From a virus: a DNA stretch of 37,454 nt. Of the stretch, positions 24,255-32,494 are shown piece after piece. The stretch lies in UHGV virus genome UHGV-2036287; one strand, written 5' to 3'. The number at the start of each line of letters is the position of its first letter. Position 1 is the stretch's first letter. A program made the translations under genes and the position numbers. The notes under the pieces were generated by a model, which saw only the letters and a program-made list of their open reading frames with translations, searched no databases and was not told the DNA's origin.

Positions 24255-24505
24255 TGAAAGCATACCGCTATTCCGGCCCGGCCAGCGGCGTCACGCTGTC
24301 GGACGGAACCGAAATCCTGCTCTGGCCGGGGAAGGCGGTTTCCCTGCCGGAGGAGCATGACTACGTGAAGGTACTGGTGGCGCTGAAGCATCTGACGCCG
24401 GTACCAGAAGATACTAAACCCGCCGTCACACCGGCTGTGCAGTCACCAAAGCGCAGAAGCAGCAGTGACAGCGAAGTGAAAACGGAGGACGCCCATGGCA
24501 GCTAA
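24251..24505 (+). CDS. Hypothetical protein
   Basis: 84-aa ORF coupled at both ends within the head-tail block. Confidence 0.35.
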   Translation: MMKAYRYSGPASGVTLSDGTEILLWPGKAVSLPEEHDYVKVLVALKHLTPVPEDTKPAVTPAVQSPKRRSSSDSEVKTEDAHGS

Positions 24506-25922
24506 CTATCTGCATGGTCCCGAAACCATTGAGGTGGAAAACGGAGCCCGCCCGGTTAAAACGGTGAAATCTGCCGTTATTGGCCTGATTGGTACCGCCC
24601 CGATGGGGGATGTCAATACGCTGGTACAGTGCCTGTCTGAGAAAGACGCAGCGGCATTTGGCAGCCAGTTCACCGGCTTTACCATTCCGCAGGCGCTGGA
24701 TGCGATTTATGACCATGGTGCAGGCACCGTTCTGGTCATTAACGTCCTCGACCCGGCGAAACATAAAACGGCGATCGAGGATGAGGTGGTTACCTTTGAC
24801 AAATCGACAGGGCAGGCCAGACTGGCGCATCCGGTTGTCGCTAATGTGGTGGTGAAAAACAGTGAAGGCAGCACCACCCACACGGCGAACACGGACTACC
24901 GTGTTGATGCGCAGGCGGGTGTGCTCACGAACCTGGGCAAGGCTATTGAGGCCGGTGGCAGCGTGAAGGTGAGCTATGAGTACGCGGACCCGTCGAAGGT
25001 GACTGCGGCGGACATCATCGGCGGGGTGAACAGCGCCGGAAACCGAACCGGCATGAAGCTGCTTAACGACAGCTTCAACCTGTACGGCTATTTCGCCAAA
25101 ATTCTGATTGCGCCGGTGTTCTGCACCCAGAAGAGTGTCGCAGTTGAGCTTATCGCCATGGCAGAGAAGCTGGGCGCGGTAACCTACATTGATGCGCCTG
25201 TCGGTACCACCTTTGCACAGGCTCTGGCAGGTCGTGGCCCGGAAGGCACCATCAACTTCAATACCAGCTCCGACCGCGTCCGTCTGTGCTATCCGCATGT
25301 GAAGGTATATGACCCGGTGACAAACACAGAGCGTCTGGAGCCGCTCAGCCAGCGTGCAGCAGGTCTGCGTGCCAGAGTCGATCTGGACAAGGGCTACTGG
25401 TGGTCATCCTCCAATCAGGAGATTCTGGGGATCACCGGCGTGGAGCGCCAGCTGTCCGCGATGATTGATGACCCGCAGAGTGAGGTAAACCTGCTTAACG
25501 AACAGGGGATCACCACGGTATTCAGCAGTTACGGCAGCGGCCTTCGTCTGTGGGGTAACCGGACGGCAGCATGGCCAACGGTCACCCATATGCGTAACTT
25601 TGAGAACGTTCGCCGCACCGGTGATGTGATCAACGAGTCCATTCGTTATTTCAGCCAGCAGTACATCGACATGCCGATTACTCAGGCGCTGATTGATGCA
25701 CTGACGGAGTCGGTCAACGCCTACGGTCGCAAAATGACTGGTGATGGTGCGGTACTGGGCTTCCGTTGCTGGTTTGATCCGGCCCGCAATCCGGAGACGG
25801 AGCTGGCCGCCGGGCACCTGTTGCTGAGCTACAAATATACGCCACCACCGCCGCTGGAGCGACTGACGTTTGAGACTGAGATCACCTCGGAATACCTGTT
25901 AACCCTGAAAGGGGGCAACTGA
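24495..25922 (+). CDS. Contractile tail sheath protein (P2 FI / Mu L family)
   Basis: 475 aa; size, position before the tube gene, conserved C-terminal sheath region. Confidence 0.75.
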   Translation: MAANYLHGPETIEVENGARPVKTVKSAVIGLIGTAPMGDVNTLVQCLSEKDAAAFGSQFTGFTIPQALDAIYDHGAGTVLVINVLDPAKHKTAIEDEVVTFDKSTGQARLAHPVVANVVVKNSEGSTTHTANTDYRVDAQAGVLTNLGKAIEAGGSVKVSYEYADPSKVTAADIIGGVNSAGNRTGMKLLNDSFNLYGYFAKILIAPVFCTQKSVAVELIAMAEKLGAVTYIDAPVGTTFAQALAGRGPEGTINFNTSSDRVRLCYPHVKVYDPVTNTERLEPLSQRAAGLRARVDLDKGYWWSSSNQEILGITGVERQLSAMIDDPQSEVNLLNEQGITTVFSSYGSGLRLWGNRTAAWPTVTHMRNFENVRRTGDVINESIRYFSQQYIDMPITQALIDALTESVNAYGRKMTGDGAVLGFRCWFDPARNPETELAAGHLLLSYKYTPPPPLERLTFETEITSEYLLTLKGGN

Positions 25923-26443
25923 TGTCAAAGATTGAGATAAACCGCATCACGAATGCCAACATCTATCTGGATGGTACTAACCTGCTGGGACGGGCTGAGG
26001 AAGTTAAACTCCCCGATGTCTCCATGATTATGCAGGAACACAAGGCGCTGGGGATGGTGGGTAAGGTGGAACTCCCGGCTGGTTTTGACAAACTGGAAGG
26101 CGAAATCAAATGGAACAGCTTTTACCGCGATGCGATGCTGTCTGCCGCGAACCCGTACAGGTCGCTGGCACTGCAGTGTCGTTCCAGCGTCCAGCGCTAC
26201 AGCTCGCAGGGGCTGATTGACGAAATCCCGCTGGTCACCTTCCTGACGATTATGTTCAAGAAGAACCCGCTGGGGACGTTCAAACAGCACGAGAACGCCG
26301 AGTTCTCCAGTAGCTTCACCTGCACGTATATCAGACAGGTACTGGATGGTGAAGAGCTGCTGCAACTGGACTATCTGGCCAACATCTTCCGGGTCGGCGG
26401 TGTTGATCAACTGACTGACTACCGTATCAATATCGGGGGCTGA
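25922..26443 (+). CDS. Tail tube protein (P2 FII / Mu M family)
   Basis: 173 aa; start overlaps the sheath stop (TGATG). Confidence 0.7.
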   Translation: MSKIEINRITNANIYLDGTNLLGRAEEVKLPDVSMIMQEHKALGMVGKVELPAGFDKLEGEIKWNSFYRDAMLSAANPYRSLALQCRSSVQRYSSQGLIDEIPLVTFLTIMFKKNPLGTFKQHENAEFSSSFTCTYIRQVLDGEELLQLDYLANIFRVGGVDQLTDYRINIGG

Positions 26444-26445
26444 CG

Positions 26446-26727
26446 ATGAGTGTTGAACTGACGGATAAAGGAAGACGATGTGCGGCACTGGGCATGTCAA
26501 ATGGTACGTGGTTTACCCTCCTTGATATTCCGGGGGTGGAAACCCTTTTTAATACCCGTAAAACCAATGACCCGATTGACTGCACACGTTCAAAGGCCCG
26601 CAAACTGGCGGATTTGATTGAAGCATGGGAGCCTCCCGACCACTGGTTCTCCGGCACCGGCAAATCTGAGGGAAAGACGCTTCTCATCGCTTTCCTGCGT
26701 AACTGCAAGGGGTTTCGCACTTGCTGA
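26446..26727 (+). CDS. Hypothetical small protein (moron-like insert between tube and chaperone genes)
   Basis: 93-aa ORF followed by a clean terminator hairpin; no motif recognised. Confidence 0.4.
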   Translation: MSVELTDKGRRCAALGMSNGTWFTLLDIPGVETLFNTRKTNDPIDCTRSKARKLADLIEAWEPPDHWFSGTGKSEGKTLLIAFLRNCKGFRTC

Positions 26728-26733
26728 CATCAC

Positions 26734-26760
26734 AGGGGCTCCGGCCCCTTCTTCTTAATC
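26734..26760 (+). terminator. Rho-independent terminator
   Basis: AGGGGC-TCCG-GCCCCT stem-loop followed by TCTTCTTAATCTCC. Confidence 0.5.
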
Positions 26761-26824
26761 TCCTTTAATATCCGTCACGCGCTTCTCCCGACATACTGCC
26801 CTGAACTTACACAGGAGCACAATC

Positions 26825-27160
26825 ATGTCACAGACCCCATCCGATACTTTTAAATTGTCTTATCCCTTCACCACTGCTGCAGGCACCAGAATTGAGCAGG
26901 TTGAACTGAAACGCCTGACGGTAAAAGACCTGAAGCAGGTGCGCAAAATCAGCAAAAACCCGGCAGACTGGGACGAACCGCTGATTGCCCGCAGTACTGG
27001 TCTTCTCCCGGAAGATCTCGACAATATGGATCTGGCTGATTACCTGCAGTTACAGAAACGATTTCAGCTCATCACGGGGATGGGTGAGAGCAACCAGGGC
27101 GCTGACGCAGGCGCAGGGGCTGCTGGCGAGATGGTTCCGGTTTCAGCCGGGGGAGATTGA
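26825..27160 (+). CDS. Tail assembly chaperone (P2 gpE-like), upstream frame
   Basis: 111 aa, acidic, directly upstream of the tape measure gene; RBS AGGAG. Confidence 0.6.
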   Translation: MSQTPSDTFKLSYPFTTAAGTRIEQVELKRLTVKDLKQVRKISKNPADWDEPLIARSTGLLPEDLDNMDLADYLQLQKRFQLITGMGESNQGADAGAGAAGEMVPVSAGGD

Positions 27161-27242
27161 TGCCCTCGATACTGACGATCTGGAGATGTGGCTGGAGCAG
27201 GCTGAAGAGCAAATAAAAAGCGAGTACGGCGACAAATCATAG
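26825..27242 (+). CDS. Putative frameshift-extended tail assembly chaperone (E+E'-like fusion)
   Basis: A second ORF in another frame (open 26985-27242) overlaps the 3' half of the chaperone ORF and extends to within 75 bp of the tape measure start, the classic position for a programmed frameshift; by my frame arithmetic the shift is +1, which is unusual. Confidence 0.4.
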
Positions 27243-27317
27243 TACAGACAGCCGCCAGTAGCGGCTGTTCTGCGTTATCCCCTCACGTCTTTTCACCTTC
27301 CCCGGAGGTTAACCACT

Positions 27318-30269
27318 ATGTCGGGACAGTTTTCAGTCGGCGTTGTTATCGGCGGGATGATTGGCAGCACATTCCGTTCTGCAATGAGCGGTACCCGCCG
27401 TGCGCTTGATTCCCTGAGCGATACCTCACGCCGCCTGCAGGAACGTCAGAACGCTTTAACCCGTGCAACAGAACGTTATGGTCAACTGGGTTCTTCCCGG
27501 ATGCAGCATCTCAACAGCGAGCTGCTGCGGGTAAGCCGCACCATGGAGCAAATTGAGCGCCAGCAGCGCCGTCTGTCAGCGGCATCCGCTACCAGTGATG
27601 CGCTGAAAGCTAACCGCATGGCGCTGTATGGTCAGGGGATTGAAGCGTATGGCATGGCACAGACTGTTTATCATACGGTTTCCCCTGCCGTTCAGCAGTC
27701 CATGTCTTTTCAGGACAAAATGATTGATATGTCGATCACCGCAAAATATGACAATAAAACGCGGGATGCACTTGCCGGACAGATAAAAGGCTGGGCGCTT
27801 AAATACAATCAGTATCAGGATGAGCTGCAGGAGGCGGTGGGTTCACTCATCAGCGACAATATTGATAATGTGTCAGATATCGGTTTTCTGATGCCGGATA
27901 TTGCCCGCGCGGCAACGGCAACACGCACGTCTGCTCAGGACTGGGCAAAAGTGGCCGCAGTCTGGCAAAACTCCCTGAAAGGTGCGGCCAGAGATTTTGG
28001 TGCCGTTCAGAATATTATGGCTTATGCCGGTGACCAGGGGTCATTTGAAATCCCGGATCAGGTCAAGTGGATGCAGTCCCTGGCCCCAATGATGGCGGGT
28101 ATTGCCAGTGGAAAAGAAGCTGTTGCTGAAATCGGGGCCAGTCTCCAGATAGCAAAAATCGGTGCAGGTTCCACCGACGAAGCAGCCAATAATTTTAAAA
28201 ACTTTCTTACCAAAATTTTTGCCCGCGATACTCAGAAACAGTTTGCTGATCTGGGTATTGATTTGCAGGGATCTATTGCGAGTTATAAAGCTGCGGGGAT
28301 CTCTCCGATTGAAGGGATGTTGAGTGTTATAGAACGTTACCTCAATGCCAAAAGCCCCGAAGCGCTGGCCGGCTTCAAATCAGCCATGAAAATAAAGAAT
28401 GATACGGCAAGAGATGAGGCACTTCAGGCTCTGGCGAAAAACTTTGGTCTGGGCGATATGTTCGCGGATATGCAGGTCATGGCATTTATCCGCCCGATGC
28501 TGGCCAACATGGACAGATATCGAGAGATCCGTGCCGGTGCTCTCAGGGCTGCGGATAACGATTTGCTTGCCAGTGCTTATGATCAGCGGCTGAAATCTCC
28601 CCTTGAAGCCACTAAAACACTTATGGTCAGCAGTCGCGATCTGGCAATTACGCTGGGCGATCAATTAGCTCCATCTTTTATTTCTTTGACTCAGGAACTG
28701 CTTCCACTCATTCAGGGGGCAAAACACTGGGTAGCGACTCACCCGCAATTTGTCAGTGGGGCTTTTAAGCTCATCAGTGCGCTCCTTGCGATTAAGATAG
28801 CGACTGTTGGTCTCAAACTGGGGCTGAATCTCCTTATTTCCCCCTTTGTAAGTGTCTGGAAAAATGCTGTTTTACTTCGGGGCAACTGGCTTCGTCTGTC
28901 GCTCGCACTGGGGCAAGGCGGTAAGCTCCGCTGGCTGGTGACCGGATTTAGCGCCGTCGCCAGAGGAGCCAGAACACTGAGTGGCGTGCTCTCCGGGGGG
29001 CTGGTTCGCGGAATTATGCTCGCCGGACGTGCTGTTCTCTGGATTGGACGTGCGCTGATGATGAATCCCATCGGTCTCGTTATCACCGCTGTCGCGGCAG
29101 CAGCTTACCTTATCTACCGCAACTGGGGGGCAGTCAGTGGCTGGTTTAAACAGCGCTGGGCAGACATTCAGGAAGCCTTTAACGGCGGCATTGTGGGAAT
29201 TGGTAAGTTGCTGATTAACTGGTCGCCGGCAGGCCTGCTCTATAAAGCCTTTGCGGCTGCGCTGAAATATTTCGGCGTTGCTCTGCCGGCAAAGTTCACC
29301 GACTTCGGTGGCCATCTTATCGACGGTCTGATTAACGGTATCAAAAACAAATGGGGGTCGCTCAAATCCAGTGTAACCGGAATGGGTGACAGCATCAGTA
29401 GCTGGTTTAAACAGTGCTGGGCTGACATTCAGGAAGCCTTTAACGGCGGTATCGCGGGAACTGGTAAGCTGCTGATTAACTGGTCGCCGGCAGGTCTGCT
29501 CTATAAAGCCTTTGCAGCTGCGCTGAAATATCTTGGTGTTGATCTGCCGGCAAAGTTTACCGACTTCGGTGGCCATCTTGTCGATGGTCTGATTAACGGT
29601 ATCAAAAACAAATGGGAGTCGCTCAAATCCAGTGTAACCGGAATGGGTGACAGCATCAGTGGCTGGTTCAGCGAAAAGCTGGGCATTCATTCGCCGAGCC
29701 GCGTGTTTATGGGCTTTGGTGACAATATCGCGCAGGGGGCCGCCATTGGCCTGCAGCGGACCACTCCGCTTGCAGCTCTGGCCGGGCAGCGAATGGCCAG
29801 TGAACTGCTCCCCAAAATGCCCGTGAGCATTCAGGGGCCAGAAATACGGGATAACACTTCAGGTGTTCGCTTCAGTATGCCGTTGCCCGATATCAATGGG
29901 TTTATGTCGTCTGCTAAAAATGCGATCGGAGCCGTAATCAATAGTTTGTCTTCCATGCCCGCTATTCCGCTCTCCACCCGGGCATCGATTTTACCAGGGC
30001 AACGTCTGGCAAATGAGATGACACCGGATGTTCCCCGTATCCCCTCGCCTGAAATCCTGGCTGCCGGATATTCAGGCCGTGGTGCAACTGCAACCGGCGG
30101 TGGAACGTCTGGTGGTATCCAGGTCAGCTTTAATCCTCAGTTTTTCCTCAATGGCAGGGAAACCACAGCGCCTGCAGGACTGACTGGTGCCCTGAATATG
30201 AGTCTGCATGAGCTGGAAAAAATGCTGGAGCGTCTGCTGGCTCAGAAACAACGTAAGGAGTACCGCTGA
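27318..30269 (+). CDS. Tail tape measure protein
   Basis: 983 aa; N-terminal coiled coil, hydrophobic central segments, internal 87-aa tandem duplication; position between chaperone and baseplate genes. Confidence 0.8.
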   Translation: MSGQFSVGVVIGGMIGSTFRSAMSGTRRALDSLSDTSRRLQERQNALTRATERYGQLGSSRMQHLNSELLRVSRTMEQIERQQRRLSAASATSDALKANRMALYGQGIEAYGMAQTVYHTVSPAVQQSMSFQDKMIDMSITAKYDNKTRDALAGQIKGWALKYNQYQDELQEAVGSLISDNIDNVSDIGFLMPDIARAATATRTSAQDWAKVAAVWQNSLKGAARDFGAVQNIMAYAGDQGSFEIPDQVKWMQSLAPMMAGIASGKEAVAEIGASLQIAKIGAGSTDEAANNFKNFLTKIFARDTQKQFADLGIDLQGSIASYKAAGISPIEGMLSVIERYLNAKSPEALAGFKSAMKIKNDTARDEALQALAKNFGLGDMFADMQVMAFIRPMLANMDRYREIRAGALRAADNDLLASAYDQRLKSPLEATKTLMVSSRDLAITLGDQLAPSFISLTQELLPLIQGAKHWVATHPQFVSGAFKLISALLAIKIATVGLKLGLNLLISPFVSVWKNAVLLRGNWLRLSLALGQGGKLRWLVTGFSAVARGARTLSGVLSGGLVRGIMLAGRAVLWIGRALMMNPIGLVITAVAAAAYLIYRNWGAVSGWFKQRWADIQEAFNGGIVGIGKLLINWSPAGLLYKAFAAALKYFGVALPAKFTDFGGHLIDGLINGIKNKWGSLKSSVTGMGDSISSWFKQCWADIQEAFNGGIAGTGKLLINWSPAGLLYKAFAAALKYLGVDLPAKFTDFGGHLVDGLINGIKNKWESLKSSVTGMGDSISGWFSEKLGIHSPSRVFMGFGDNIAQGAAIGLQRTTPLAALAGQRMASELLPKMPVSIQGPEIRDNTSGVRFSMPLPDINGFMSSAKNAIGAVINSLSSMPAIPLSTRASILPGQRLANEMTPDVPRIPSPEILAAGYSGRGATATGGGTSGGIQVSFNPQFFLNGRETTAPAGLTGALNMSLHELEKMLERLLAQKQRKEYR
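29142..29663 (+). repeat. Tandem direct duplication, 2 x 261 bp, inside the tape measure gene
   Basis: Units starting at 29142 and 29403 are about 90% identical and in frame, encoding WFKQ(R/C)WADIQEAFNGGI...GMGDSIS(S/G) twice. Confidence 0.9.
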
Positions 30270-31153
30270 TGTTTGCCGTACTGGGTGATATTGAGTTTGA
30301 GCTGATTACCTACTGGGACGGCTTCGAGGCCACGTTCGGCGTCGATTATGCGGAGCATGCCCGCATCGGGGGTAAGCCTGGCCTGCAGTTCGTCGGCGAC
30401 AGGCTGGACGAAATCCAGATAAGTCTGGTCTTCCATCAGCATTATTGTGTACCCGATGTGGAGCTGGCGAGACTGCGAACAGCCATGAAAGCCCATCAGG
30501 CACTGGCGCTGGTCTTCGGCAACGGTGACTATCGTGGCTGGTTCGTGATTACCGATGTGACCGCAACCAGCGAGCAGACAGACAGCACCGGTAACGTGCT
30601 GGCTGTCAGTGCCACCGTGTCTCTCCGGGAATACACCGGTGATCCGAAAAATCCTCTGCAACCACCGGCAATACGCACGAAGCTCCCGGGTGTCGGGGCG
30701 GTCTCCGGTGCCATTCCTTCACCTTCAGGGGTGGCGCAGTTCATCCGCAACGGCGTCAACTATGCGAAACAGGCGCAGTCTGTACTCCAGACCACTATCA
30801 GCGCCGTTCGGGTGACACAGAAAATGAAGGATAACCCCGTTGTCGCACTGACCCGTGTGCCGGGGCTGATGAGCGGACTGGGTAATATCTCCGGGGCTCT
30901 GGGGAAAAGTGTTCCGGCGTTTAACGCACTCTCTGAATCCATGCCCGATGCCATCAGTCTGGCCAGAACAGCCAGCGAAGCAGCCACGTATGTACAGCAG
31001 GCACAGTCTGCGCTGAGTGGTGTGGACAAAAGAAATATTGCAGGTGCTCTGGATACCGTTTCCGGGCAGCTTAACGCCGCCGGCACAGCATTCAACCGCA
31101 TGTCTCCGGGATTAAGTGCAATGGCCGCCAGAATACTGACGAGGAGTGTGTGA
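30269..31153 (+). CDS. Tail protein, P2 gpU / Mu N N-terminal domain-like
   Basis: N-terminus MFAVLGDIEFEL...GKPGLQFVG resembles the gpU / DNA-circularisation N-terminal domain family; start overlaps the tape measure stop. Confidence 0.5.
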   Translation: MFAVLGDIEFELITYWDGFEATFGVDYAEHARIGGKPGLQFVGDRLDEIQISLVFHQHYCVPDVELARLRTAMKAHQALALVFGNGDYRGWFVITDVTATSEQTDSTGNVLAVSATVSLREYTGDPKNPLQPPAIRTKLPGVGAVSGAIPSPSGVAQFIRNGVNYAKQAQSVLQTTISAVRVTQKMKDNPVVALTRVPGLMSGLGNISGALGKSVPAFNALSESMPDAISLARTASEAATYVQQAQSALSGVDKRNIAGALDTVSGQLNAAGTAFNRMSPGLSAMAARILTRSV

Positions 31154-31365
31154 TGTTTCTTGAACATGTTACCCGTGACGGAGAGCGCTGGGATTCGCTG
31201 GCATGGCAGTACTACGGTGACCCGCTGGGCTATCCCCGGATTATTGCCGCCAATCCGCACGTGGCCATCACGCCGGTGCTGCCCTCCGGGCTGTTGTTAC
31301 TGATCCCGGTGATTGAGGCTGAAGAAGCCCGTACAGAAGAGGATATTGCCCCATGGCTGAGATAA
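31150..31365 (+). CDS. Tail protein X (P2 gpX-like)
   Basis: 71 aa with the ERWDSLAWQYYGDP motif typical of gpX. Confidence 0.6.
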   Translation: MMFLEHVTRDGERWDSLAWQYYGDPLGYPRIIAANPHVAITPVLPSGLLLLIPVIEAEEARTEEDIAPWLR

Positions 31366-32494
31366 ACAGCACTGCGCAAGTCACATCAGCGTTAACCGGC
31401 GTCAGCGATGTGCTGACACCGGTGTTCACTCTGTGGTATCTGCAGAAAAACATCACCTCTGATATCGCGCCTTATGTCACCCGTGTGACCTGGAGCGATA
31501 GTCCGATACCATTGAGGTGGAGCTGGACGACACCGATGGCCGCTGGCTGGATAAGTGGTATCCGGGCAAGGGTGACACGCTGACGCTGAAAATGGGCTAT
31601 CAGGGCGAGAAGCTGCTGTCCTGCGGTACGTTCTCTATAGACGAGATCGAAGTGAGTTCGCCCGCTTCCGTTGTTTCTATCCGTGGGGTGGCCACCTCGG
31701 TTAACAGTGCCCTGCGGACTAAAACCAGTCGTGGTTTTGAGAACACCACGCTGGCAGCTGTTGCGGGGCGGATTGCCAGAAAGCACCGACTGAAACTGGT
31801 GGGCAGCATTGAGTCCATCAGAATCGACCGGGTGACCCAGTATGCTGAAACCGACGTGGGTTTTCTGCGCCGGCTGGCCAGCGAGTATGGTTATGCAGTG
31901 AAAGTGGTCAGTGACCAGCTGATTTTTTCTCATCTGGCCACACTGCGCAGTCAGGAGCCGGTCAGGCAGTTAAAACCGCAGGATGTGGCCCGCTTTTCCC
32001 TGCGTGACACCATCAACCGGGTCTATAAATCTGCAAAGGTAAAACACCAGAAAAGCAGCAGTAAAAAACTGATCGTCTACGAAGCTGATGGTGGTACCCG
32101 TGAAAGCGACAAAAAGCTCAAAGGTGGTAAGGTTACCAGCGCTGACTCACTTAAAGTTAACAGCCGCGTCAGCGACCCGGACAGTGCCCGGATTAAAGCG
32201 GATTCAGCACTGGCCAGACATAACGAATACCAGCAGAACGGCTCCCTGACGCTGACGGGAACACCTCAACTGACAGCAGGCAACAAAATTGAACTGGTGG
32301 GTTTTGGGCAGTTATCCGGGCCATGGCTCATAACCACTGCCCGCCATGCGTTTGACCGTAACAGCGGCTACACCACAGAGCTGGAAGTGGCACGGGGGCC
32401 AGTCACAAGAGGGAAAAAACAAAAAACTCAGAAACTCACGGTTTATCACCCGGATGGCAGTACATCGACGGTGATTAAGGAGAAGAAAAAATGA
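31353..32494 (+). CDS. Tail/baseplate hub protein, P2 gpD / Mu P family, interrupted by a frameshift near 31500 (possible pseudogene or sequencing error)
   Basis: N-terminal 50 codons are in one frame (stop at 31581-31583); the rest, including the conserved EVELDDTDGRW segment, is in the -1 frame opening at 31502; combined length about 380 aa matches gpD. Confidence 0.6.

Follow-up and report, generated by a model that had tools for sequence, protein, structure and literature searches.

A predicted +1 frameshift at UUU_C in the gpE-type tail assembly chaperone gene of BcepMu-like prophages

Results

A tail chaperone pair between the tube and tape measure genes

We analyzed the viral genome UHGV-2036287, a DNA of 37,454 nucleotides read on one strand, the whole of which is referred to here as the window. 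The locus under study is the tail chaperone pair of a BcepMu-like myovirus prophage of E. coli. It belongs to a contractile-tail module spanning positions 24495–32494, which comprises the sheath gene (PF04984/PF17482), the tube gene, a 93-aa ORF, the chaperone gene, the tape measure gene, and homologues of gpU, gpX, and gpD. The chaperone pair sits between the tube and tape measure genes (Table 1), the same position as that of the G/GT pair in lambda.

A sequence-only reading of the window had taken the first gene of the pair (ORF1) for a gpE-like chaperone. This assignment was borne out by a match of ORF1 to PF10109 (Phage_TAC_7; E 3.5e-22; 78.7 bits against a cutoff of 25; residues 8–81) and by the tube and tape measure genes on its flanks. 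The family is labeled 'tail assembly chaperone E, or 41 or 14'. A Shine-Dalgarno sequence, AGGAG, lies ahead of ORF1 at 26813–17. RefSeq names the product 'phage tail assembly protein', and this 111-aa product is the sole annotation at the stretch. A search of NCBIfam with ORF1 and ORF2 returned nothing useful.

The same reading had reported a second ORF (ORF2) overlapping the first, had placed it in the +1 frame, and had found no canonical slippery heptamer. Both ORFs were present as described. The codons of ORF1 start at positions that are 2 mod 3 and those of ORF2 at positions that are 0 mod 3, so that ORF2 lies in the +1 (equivalently, -2) frame, in agreement with the earlier arithmetic. 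A heptamer of the form X_XXY_YYZ was indeed absent, as is to be expected because the target frame is not -1.

The neighborhood of the pair contains several further features. The conserved 93-aa ORF between the tube and chaperone genes (26446–26757 region) scored 24.9 bits against DUF7739, below the cutoff of 27. It is followed at 26734–26759 by a terminator-like hairpin, AGGGGCTCCGGCCCCT, with a T-rich tail, inside what is presumably a single late tail operon. A perfect 8-bp GC-rich hairpin, ACAGCCGC-CAGTA-GCGGCTGT, occupies 27248–27268, 6 nt past the +1 stop and 50 nt ahead of the tape measure start; a terminator scan made no call there because the hairpin has no T run. Within the tape measure gene, positions 29134–29668 form a tandem duplication with a unit of 261 nt (87 aa; 2.0 copies; 93% identity). 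The gene is 2952 nt long in the window, versus 2466 nt in KP12 and E. coli JNEC-KY180, which would predict a longer tail for this prophage than for those two. In PhiKM, the tape measure gene contains a sequencing gap.

Table 1. Coordinates of genes, domains, and sites at the chaperone locus of the window
Feature	Position	Strand	Description
Tail tube gene	25922–26443	+	PF04985, E 2.9e-53
Frame-0 tail assembly chaperone gene (ORF1)	26825–27160	+	111 aa, predicted major product; P2 gpE / Mu gp41-type
Open +1-frame stretch (ORF2)	26985–27242	+	85 aa from TTG, ending ...DALDTDDLEMWLEQAEEQIKSEYGDKS; TAG stop at 27240–42; translation proposed for 27066–27239 only
Proposed recoding site CGA_UUU_CAG	27059–27067	+	Candidate; slip from UUU (27062–64) to UUC (27063–65), resuming at AGC 27066
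+1-frame coding part of the predicted fusion	27066–27239	+	58 aa, SSSRGWVRATRALTQAQGLLARWFRFQPGEIDALDTDDLEMWLEQAEEQIKSEYGDKS; from translation and synonymous-dominated variation in the +1 frame
Alternative lineage-specific candidate GGG_A	27077–27080	+	Frame-0 ACG_GGG_ATG; +1 Trp TGG at 27081–83
E'-like domain, LARWFRFQPGEIDALDTDDLEMWLEQAEEQIKS	27123–27221	+	Probably homologous to the -1-frame extension of P2 gpE+E'
G5 run	27149–27153	+	Mu-like in appearance; rejected as shift site
Tape measure protein gene	27318–30269	+	PF10145, E 2e-20; RefSeq 'phage tail tape measure protein'; presumed chaperone client

The +1 extension resembles the E' extension of P2

The predicted 138-aa fusion of the two frames matched PF10109 with an E value of 1.5e-23, and its residues 100–132 gave 18.3 bits against PF06528 (Phage_P2_GpE), below the gathering cutoff of 23. 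Among 17 divergent +1 extensions, 12 matched PF06528, the best of them with an E value of 8e-8. When a profile of the +1 extensions was compared with the P2 E' peptide by hhalign, the two aligned with 90.8% probability (E 1.2e-6). These comparisons support ORF2 as the likely counterpart of the P2 E' extension.

A homologue in Pasteurella phage AFS-2018a carries a canonical G_GGA_AAG heptamer and a -1 extension, which scored 51 bits against PF06528. Because both P2 and AFS-2018a use -1, the homologous two-domain protein appears to be encoded with differing frame relations.

Conservation of the frame relation among relatives

The stretch was 99.4% identical to that of Escherichia phage PhiKM, which is labeled as a Bcepmuvirus. 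It was found in 637 of 5426 complete E. coli genomes (about 12%), in 580 of them at an identity of at least 99%. For comparison, we assembled 80 viral contigs and 11 genomes close to the window, together with annotated phage or prophage records of Salmonella, Ralstonia phage YO107_2, two Pseudomonas phages, and the Pasteurella phage, along with relatives; BcepMu and 14 relatives were also among the loci compared. The alignment-based scan of viral contigs gave close relatives only, and the distant lineages were added one by one. Fourteen BcepMu-group loci were checked by their reading frames, and the other loci were tested formally.

Across seven lineages, about 135 related loci share the +1 relation; the compared sequences are phylogenetically related, so that such counts do not represent independent events. 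At every locus except that of the Pasteurella phage, the conserved C-terminal peptide was found in the +1 frame of the chaperone. The end of the +1 ORF keeps a nearly constant distance from a conserved Phe codon, which it follows by 54–62 codons in most lineages and by 79 in BcepMu. The frame-0 stop wanders, lying anywhere from 10 to 36 codons past the conserved Phe TTT. In most relatives, it occurs at the equivalent of 27137, giving 104-aa products, and a CAG>TAG allele at 27095–27097 truncates the frame-0 chaperone to 90 aa (L024, L025, and P0012; a cluster on 914 contigs). Because this 90-aa allele is common, the low-complexity frame-0 tail, QGADAGAGAAGEMVPVSAGGD, seems to be dispensable, and it is probably a mere shadow of the +1 coding sequence.

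Purifying selection passes from frame 0 to the +1 frame inside the overlap

We examined the pairwise differences among 65 unique close homologs in all three frames. Upstream of 27062, the synonymous fraction was 0.60 in frame 0, 0.10 in the +1 frame, and 0.07 in the -1 frame. In the region 27114–27239, the corresponding values were 0.09, 0.54, and 0.07. These fractions indicate that both the frame-0 part and the +1 part are translated and that the -1 frame is not.

Codon by codon, constraint changed from frame 0 to +1 at 27074–27081. At the switch point, the frame-0 ACN (Thr) codon accounted for 1062 synonymous and 0 nonsynonymous differences and the +1 GGN codon for 1098 synonymous and 64 nonsynonymous differences, and the TGG was invariant. 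From 27078/27081 on, variation in the +1 frame was mostly synonymous. In the window's lineage, four frame-0 codons past TTT are still constrained and the +1 residues there are variable; frame-0 constraint beyond a shift site is expected anyway, because most ribosomes would remain in frame 0. Purifying selection thus passes from one frame to the other inside the overlap.

The +1-frame Trp codon (TGG, 27081–27083) overlaps a frame-0 NTG_G codon for Met, Leu, or Val. A +1 Trp 3–6 codons past TTT_C is kept in the enteric, Salmonella, Ralstonia-type, Pseudomonas group 1, and BcepMu sequences, and is not kept in the Bise group.

UUU_C as the candidate shift site

We are highly confident that a programmed shift into the +1 frame makes a gpE+E'-like fusion. 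The +1 frame lacks a conserved start codon, and the fusion must therefore arise by recoding. The candidate site for this event, UUU_C at 27062–65, lies about 95 nt upstream of the frame-0 stop. CGATTTC was invariant in 68 unique close homologs. TTT_C was present in 79 of 79 unique sequences from six lineages, as well as in 13 more BcepMu-group sequences. The alignment of homologous chaperone pairs, which had been proposed from the sequence alone as a way of finding a conserved shift site, thus yielded an invariant element. In its codon context, the site reads CGA_TTT_CAG in the E. coli group and Salmonella, CGA_TTT_CTG/CTC in the Ralstonia-type sequences, GTG/ACG_TTT_CGG/CAA in Pseudomonas group 1, GCA/GCG/AAA_TTT_CAA/CAG in the Bise group, and TCC/GCC/TCT_TTT_CGC/CGT in the BcepMu group, BcepMu itself having TCC_TTT_CGC.

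As a codon control, we took the 12 alignment columns of the 79 unique sequences in which a residue other than Met or Trp was at least 90% conserved. Eleven of these columns used 2–6 codons each; Phe alone was fixed, with TTT in 79 of 79. The residue past Phe varies (Q/L/R), yet its first base is always C. In the GC-rich lineages, TTT is a minority Phe codon, with a share of about 0.2–0.4. The invariance of CGA/TTT/C could in part be due to a constraint other than slippage.

The limits of the shift region were set from both sides. Its 5' bound is given by +1-frame stops: in the Ralstonia-type and Pseudomonas groups these precede TTT by 3 codons, and in one further relative (L088) by 5. Past the conserved Phe codon, no +1-frame stop was found in the relatives compared. 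The 3' bound is the switch of selection, with +1 constraint from 27078/27081. Between these two bounds, all lineages compared share TTT_C and no other element. From these comparisons, we put the probability that the chaperone pair is made from one mRNA by a +1 shift at UUU_C at roughly 0.7. Accordingly, we infer that the slip takes place at UUU_C and not a few codons downstream, and that it is a +1 and not a -2 event.

Alternatives to a shift at UUU_C

The switch of constraint from frame 0 to +1 maps exactly to a G run, ACG_GGG_A (27074–80), at which tRNAGly might slip by +1 from GGG to GGA, or at which a Mu-like -2 shift might add a Gly. Within the window's own lineage, such a site would account for the data just as well; GGG in the P site is prone to shifting (bioRxiv 10.1101/2025.10.02.679949), and the related Mu chaperone shifts on a G run. 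However, the Salmonella, Ralstonia-type, Pseudomonas, and BcepMu sequences, all of which have the +1 layout, carry no GGG_A at this position. Moreover, the landing codon of a -2 shift, CGG or CNG, would pair poorly, and the invariance of TTT_C in GC-rich hosts would be left unexplained. We therefore regard recoding at the G run as unlikely.

A small gene translated from its own start, for example GTG at 27084, would require no frameshift at all. PGAP makes such a call from the equivalent GTG in a degraded copy (L005), where it annotates a 52-aa 'GpE family phage tail protein' (WP_001202894.1), and BcepMu gp42 was deposited as a stand-alone CDS. In most relatives, however, GTG 27084 is GCA, and four relatives have no ATG, GTG, or TTG anywhere from the last +1 stop to the conserved domain. 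In addition, the +1 constraint sets in ahead of this GTG and already covers the invariant Trp at 27081, and the homologous domain of P2 is made as a fusion only. With no start codon conserved, we rejected independent initiation of ORF2, which we consider quite improbable.

The G5 run near the frame-0 stop (GGG_GGA, 27149–54) is similar to CGG_GGG_CGA of Mu and, at three codons ahead of the stop, is where sites of this kind usually occur. Either a Mu-like -2 shift or a near-stop +1 shift could be envisaged there. This possibility is very remote. The run is broken in several relatives (CCTGGGG, CCGAGTG), and the conserved E' motif LLARWFRFQP, which is under +1 selection, lies upstream of it. The run was also discarded on two further grounds: most relatives end frame 0 at the equivalent of 27137, and the 90-aa allele at 27095; and +1 constraint begins about 70 nt upstream of the run.

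Finally, a few database entries encode in-frame 138-aa fusions, as they would if the frames differed through an indel error or the gene were decaying in a prophage and the overlap had no function, but this is hardly credible given a two-frame layout that is the same in hundreds of complete genomes and seven divergent lineages, with both frames under selection. An indel error had been named at the outset as one of the findings that would overturn a frameshift; the stretch proved to be at least 99% identical in 580 complete E. coli genomes, and the +1 layout recurred in all related loci. Because the stretch is kept across hundreds of complete E. coli genomes, the frame difference is not a sequencing error.

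The 138-aa fusions in the databases are rare and have differing junctions, near 27098, in the G4 run, or in the G5 run. In L080 and L094 and in P0001–P0011, loss of a single nucleotide, often from the G4 or G5 run, joins the two frames in one ORF of 138–140 aa. Most likely, these entries reflect homopolymer errors in assembly or decay of the gene copy (Erwinia tracheiphila) rather than natural fusions.

Proposed mechanism and search for stimulators

E. coli has a single tRNAPhe, with the anticodon GAA. According to the +1 slip at UUU_C that we favor, most ribosomes would read frame 0 as far as the stop at 27158–60 and produce the 111-aa chaperone. A minority would slip one base forward at CGA_UUU_C (27059–65), where the P-site tRNAPhe on UUU would re-pair to the overlapping UUC, replacing a G·U wobble with a G:C pair. 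AGC at 27066 would be read next, and +1 translation would end at the TAG at 27240–42. The resulting fusion of 138 aa would consist of chaperone residues 1–80, a short linker, and the E'-like domain. Judging from lambda gpG/gpGT and P2 gpE/gpE+E', the N-terminal domain common to both products may serve to coat the tape measure protein, and tube subunits may be recruited by the E' domain of the minor product. The tube is named as the presumed partner of E' on the basis of the lambda model, in which gpGT is paired with gpV (PMC5009743). The frequency of the slip would set the ratio of the two products.

We looked for elements that could stimulate the slip. CAG, the A-site codon that the window has in frame 0, is not rare; depending on the lineage, the codon there is CAG, CTG, CAA, CGG, or CGC. 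RNAalifold applied to 19 sequences detected no conserved 3' RNA structure (zero pairs), and the fold of the window site as a single sequence was not significant (z = -1.45). This single-sequence fold pairs CGAUUUC with GAGAUUG about 90 nt downstream, a pairing that we attribute to the conserved Arg-Phe and Glu-Ile codons. When the upstream part of the alignment was inspected, no conserved Shine-Dalgarno-like element was seen. The rare codon CGA precedes UUU only in the enteric and Ralstonia-type groups; as a speculation, it may help there by weaker E-site pairing. No stimulator was found, and the efficiency of the slip, which we likewise infer, is perhaps only at background level. The efficiency of the -2 shift in Mu has been estimated at about 2.2%, and a low, unstimulated slip could thus suffice here.

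Discussion

Frameshifts in tail assembly chaperone genes are already known in the -1, -2, and +1 directions, as are +1-prone UUU_Y sites, and the present case is a +1 variant. Our literature search, which did not extend to Xu 2004 and Baranov 2006, found no +1 site in BcepMu-like or gpE-type chaperones, and we found no annotation of the +1 fusion. The clade with UUU_C consists of BcepMu-like prophages and related myovirus prophages of Escherichia, Salmonella, Klebsiella, Pantoea, Brenneria, Ralstonia/Burkholderia, and Pseudomonas. On balance, we lean toward the view that in this large clade of gpE-type chaperones the E' fusion results from a +1 slip on the invariant UUU_C, apparently without a stimulator. 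By the same reading, a homologous protein would be reached at the same domain boundary by a -1 shift in P2 and the Pasteurella phage, by a -2 shift in Mu, which is distant, and by a +1 shift in the clade, so that the direction was swapped in evolution and the product kept; this product would have gone unannotated, and the deposited model of BcepMu would be wrong.

If this is true, the site is a natural and very widespread bacterial programmed +1 frameshift on a bare UUU_C, and selection keeps a ratio-setting chaperone frameshift even though its direction changes within one protein family. In practical terms, the predicted 138-aa product is unannotated in hundreds of E. coli genomes and in the records of PhiKM, KP12, and BcepMu, and it will escape tools whose search is for -1 heptamers close to the stop codon. 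Our general understanding of tail assembly is unchanged.

The paradigm for gene pairs of this kind is the tail chaperone frameshift of lambda G/GT, reportedly set out by Xu et al. in 2004. As in lambda, a second ORF overlaps the first in another frame, has no conserved start, and is open among relatives; the canonical -1 heptamer X_XXY_YYZ of the paradigm is missing from the locus studied here.

Tail chaperone gene pairs shift by -1, -2, or +1 in different phages (PMC5009743). The initial sequence-only reading had set the apparent +1 frame against -1 as the usual direction: the frame itself was confirmed, and the arrangement is not unprecedented at this gene pair, given the -2 shift of Mu (PMC5009743).

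The closest parallel in product is P2 gpE/gpE+E', which has a PF10109 N-terminus, a probably homologous PF06528-type extension, and a location between the tube (FII) and tape measure (T) genes. The fusion is 142 aa in P2 versus a predicted 138 aa here. The P2 shift, like the one predicted here, comes where the chaperone domain ends, at a Phe TTT codon or beside it. The mechanisms differ, in that P2 uses a -1 tandem slip on T_TTT_TTG, whereas the site here is CGA_TTT_CAG, with no heptamer and a predicted single P-site slip in the +1 direction.

Mu gp41 is likewise a myovirus chaperone encoded ahead of the tape measure gene, and its extension shares the arithmetic frame of ORF2 (+1 = -2). The protein is a remote member of PF10109, and GenBank marks its -2 shift as verified. 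Unlike the window product, which has no match to PF23746 (Gp41_Mu), the Mu product matches this family at 8.1e-34, and its extension shows no similarity to E'. In the Mu site, CGG_GGG_CGA, a G5 run allows perfect -2 re-pairing of tRNAGly; no such run exists at the junction here.

At the level of the site itself, the nearest counterparts are Yersinia YopN-TyeA and influenza A PA-X, the latter having UUU_C within UCC_UUU_CGU (PMC3498833). In both, UUU is followed by C and tRNAPhe re-pairs to UUC, no downstream structure is obligatory, and a fusion or alternative product is made at a low level, much as we propose for the prophage chaperone. The frame-0 UUU followed by a pyrimidine, a feature of UUU_Y sites, is conserved at the nucleotide level here. 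YopN-TyeA and PA-X differ from the chaperone in biological role, and the window site is flanked by CGA before and CAG after, which is not rare.

BcepMu (AY539836) connects the two sets of comparisons. It has an orthologous module, in which gp41 is the frame-0 chaperone and gp42 a +1 E'-like ORF, and its sheath, tube, tape measure, gpU, gpX, and gpD genes are in the same order as in the window. As deposited, gp42 is a stand-alone lambda-G analogue that slips into gp43. The latter ORF lies in the frame of gp41 and overlaps the tape measure start (L207 4603–5364 for gp41–gp43). In this GC-rich DNA, it has the appearance of a spurious reading frame. The comparative data favor, instead of the deposited model, a probable fusion of gp41 to gp42 by +1 slippage. 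The BcepMu site, TCC_TTT_CGC, has the same pattern as the UCC_UUU_CGU of influenza PA-X.
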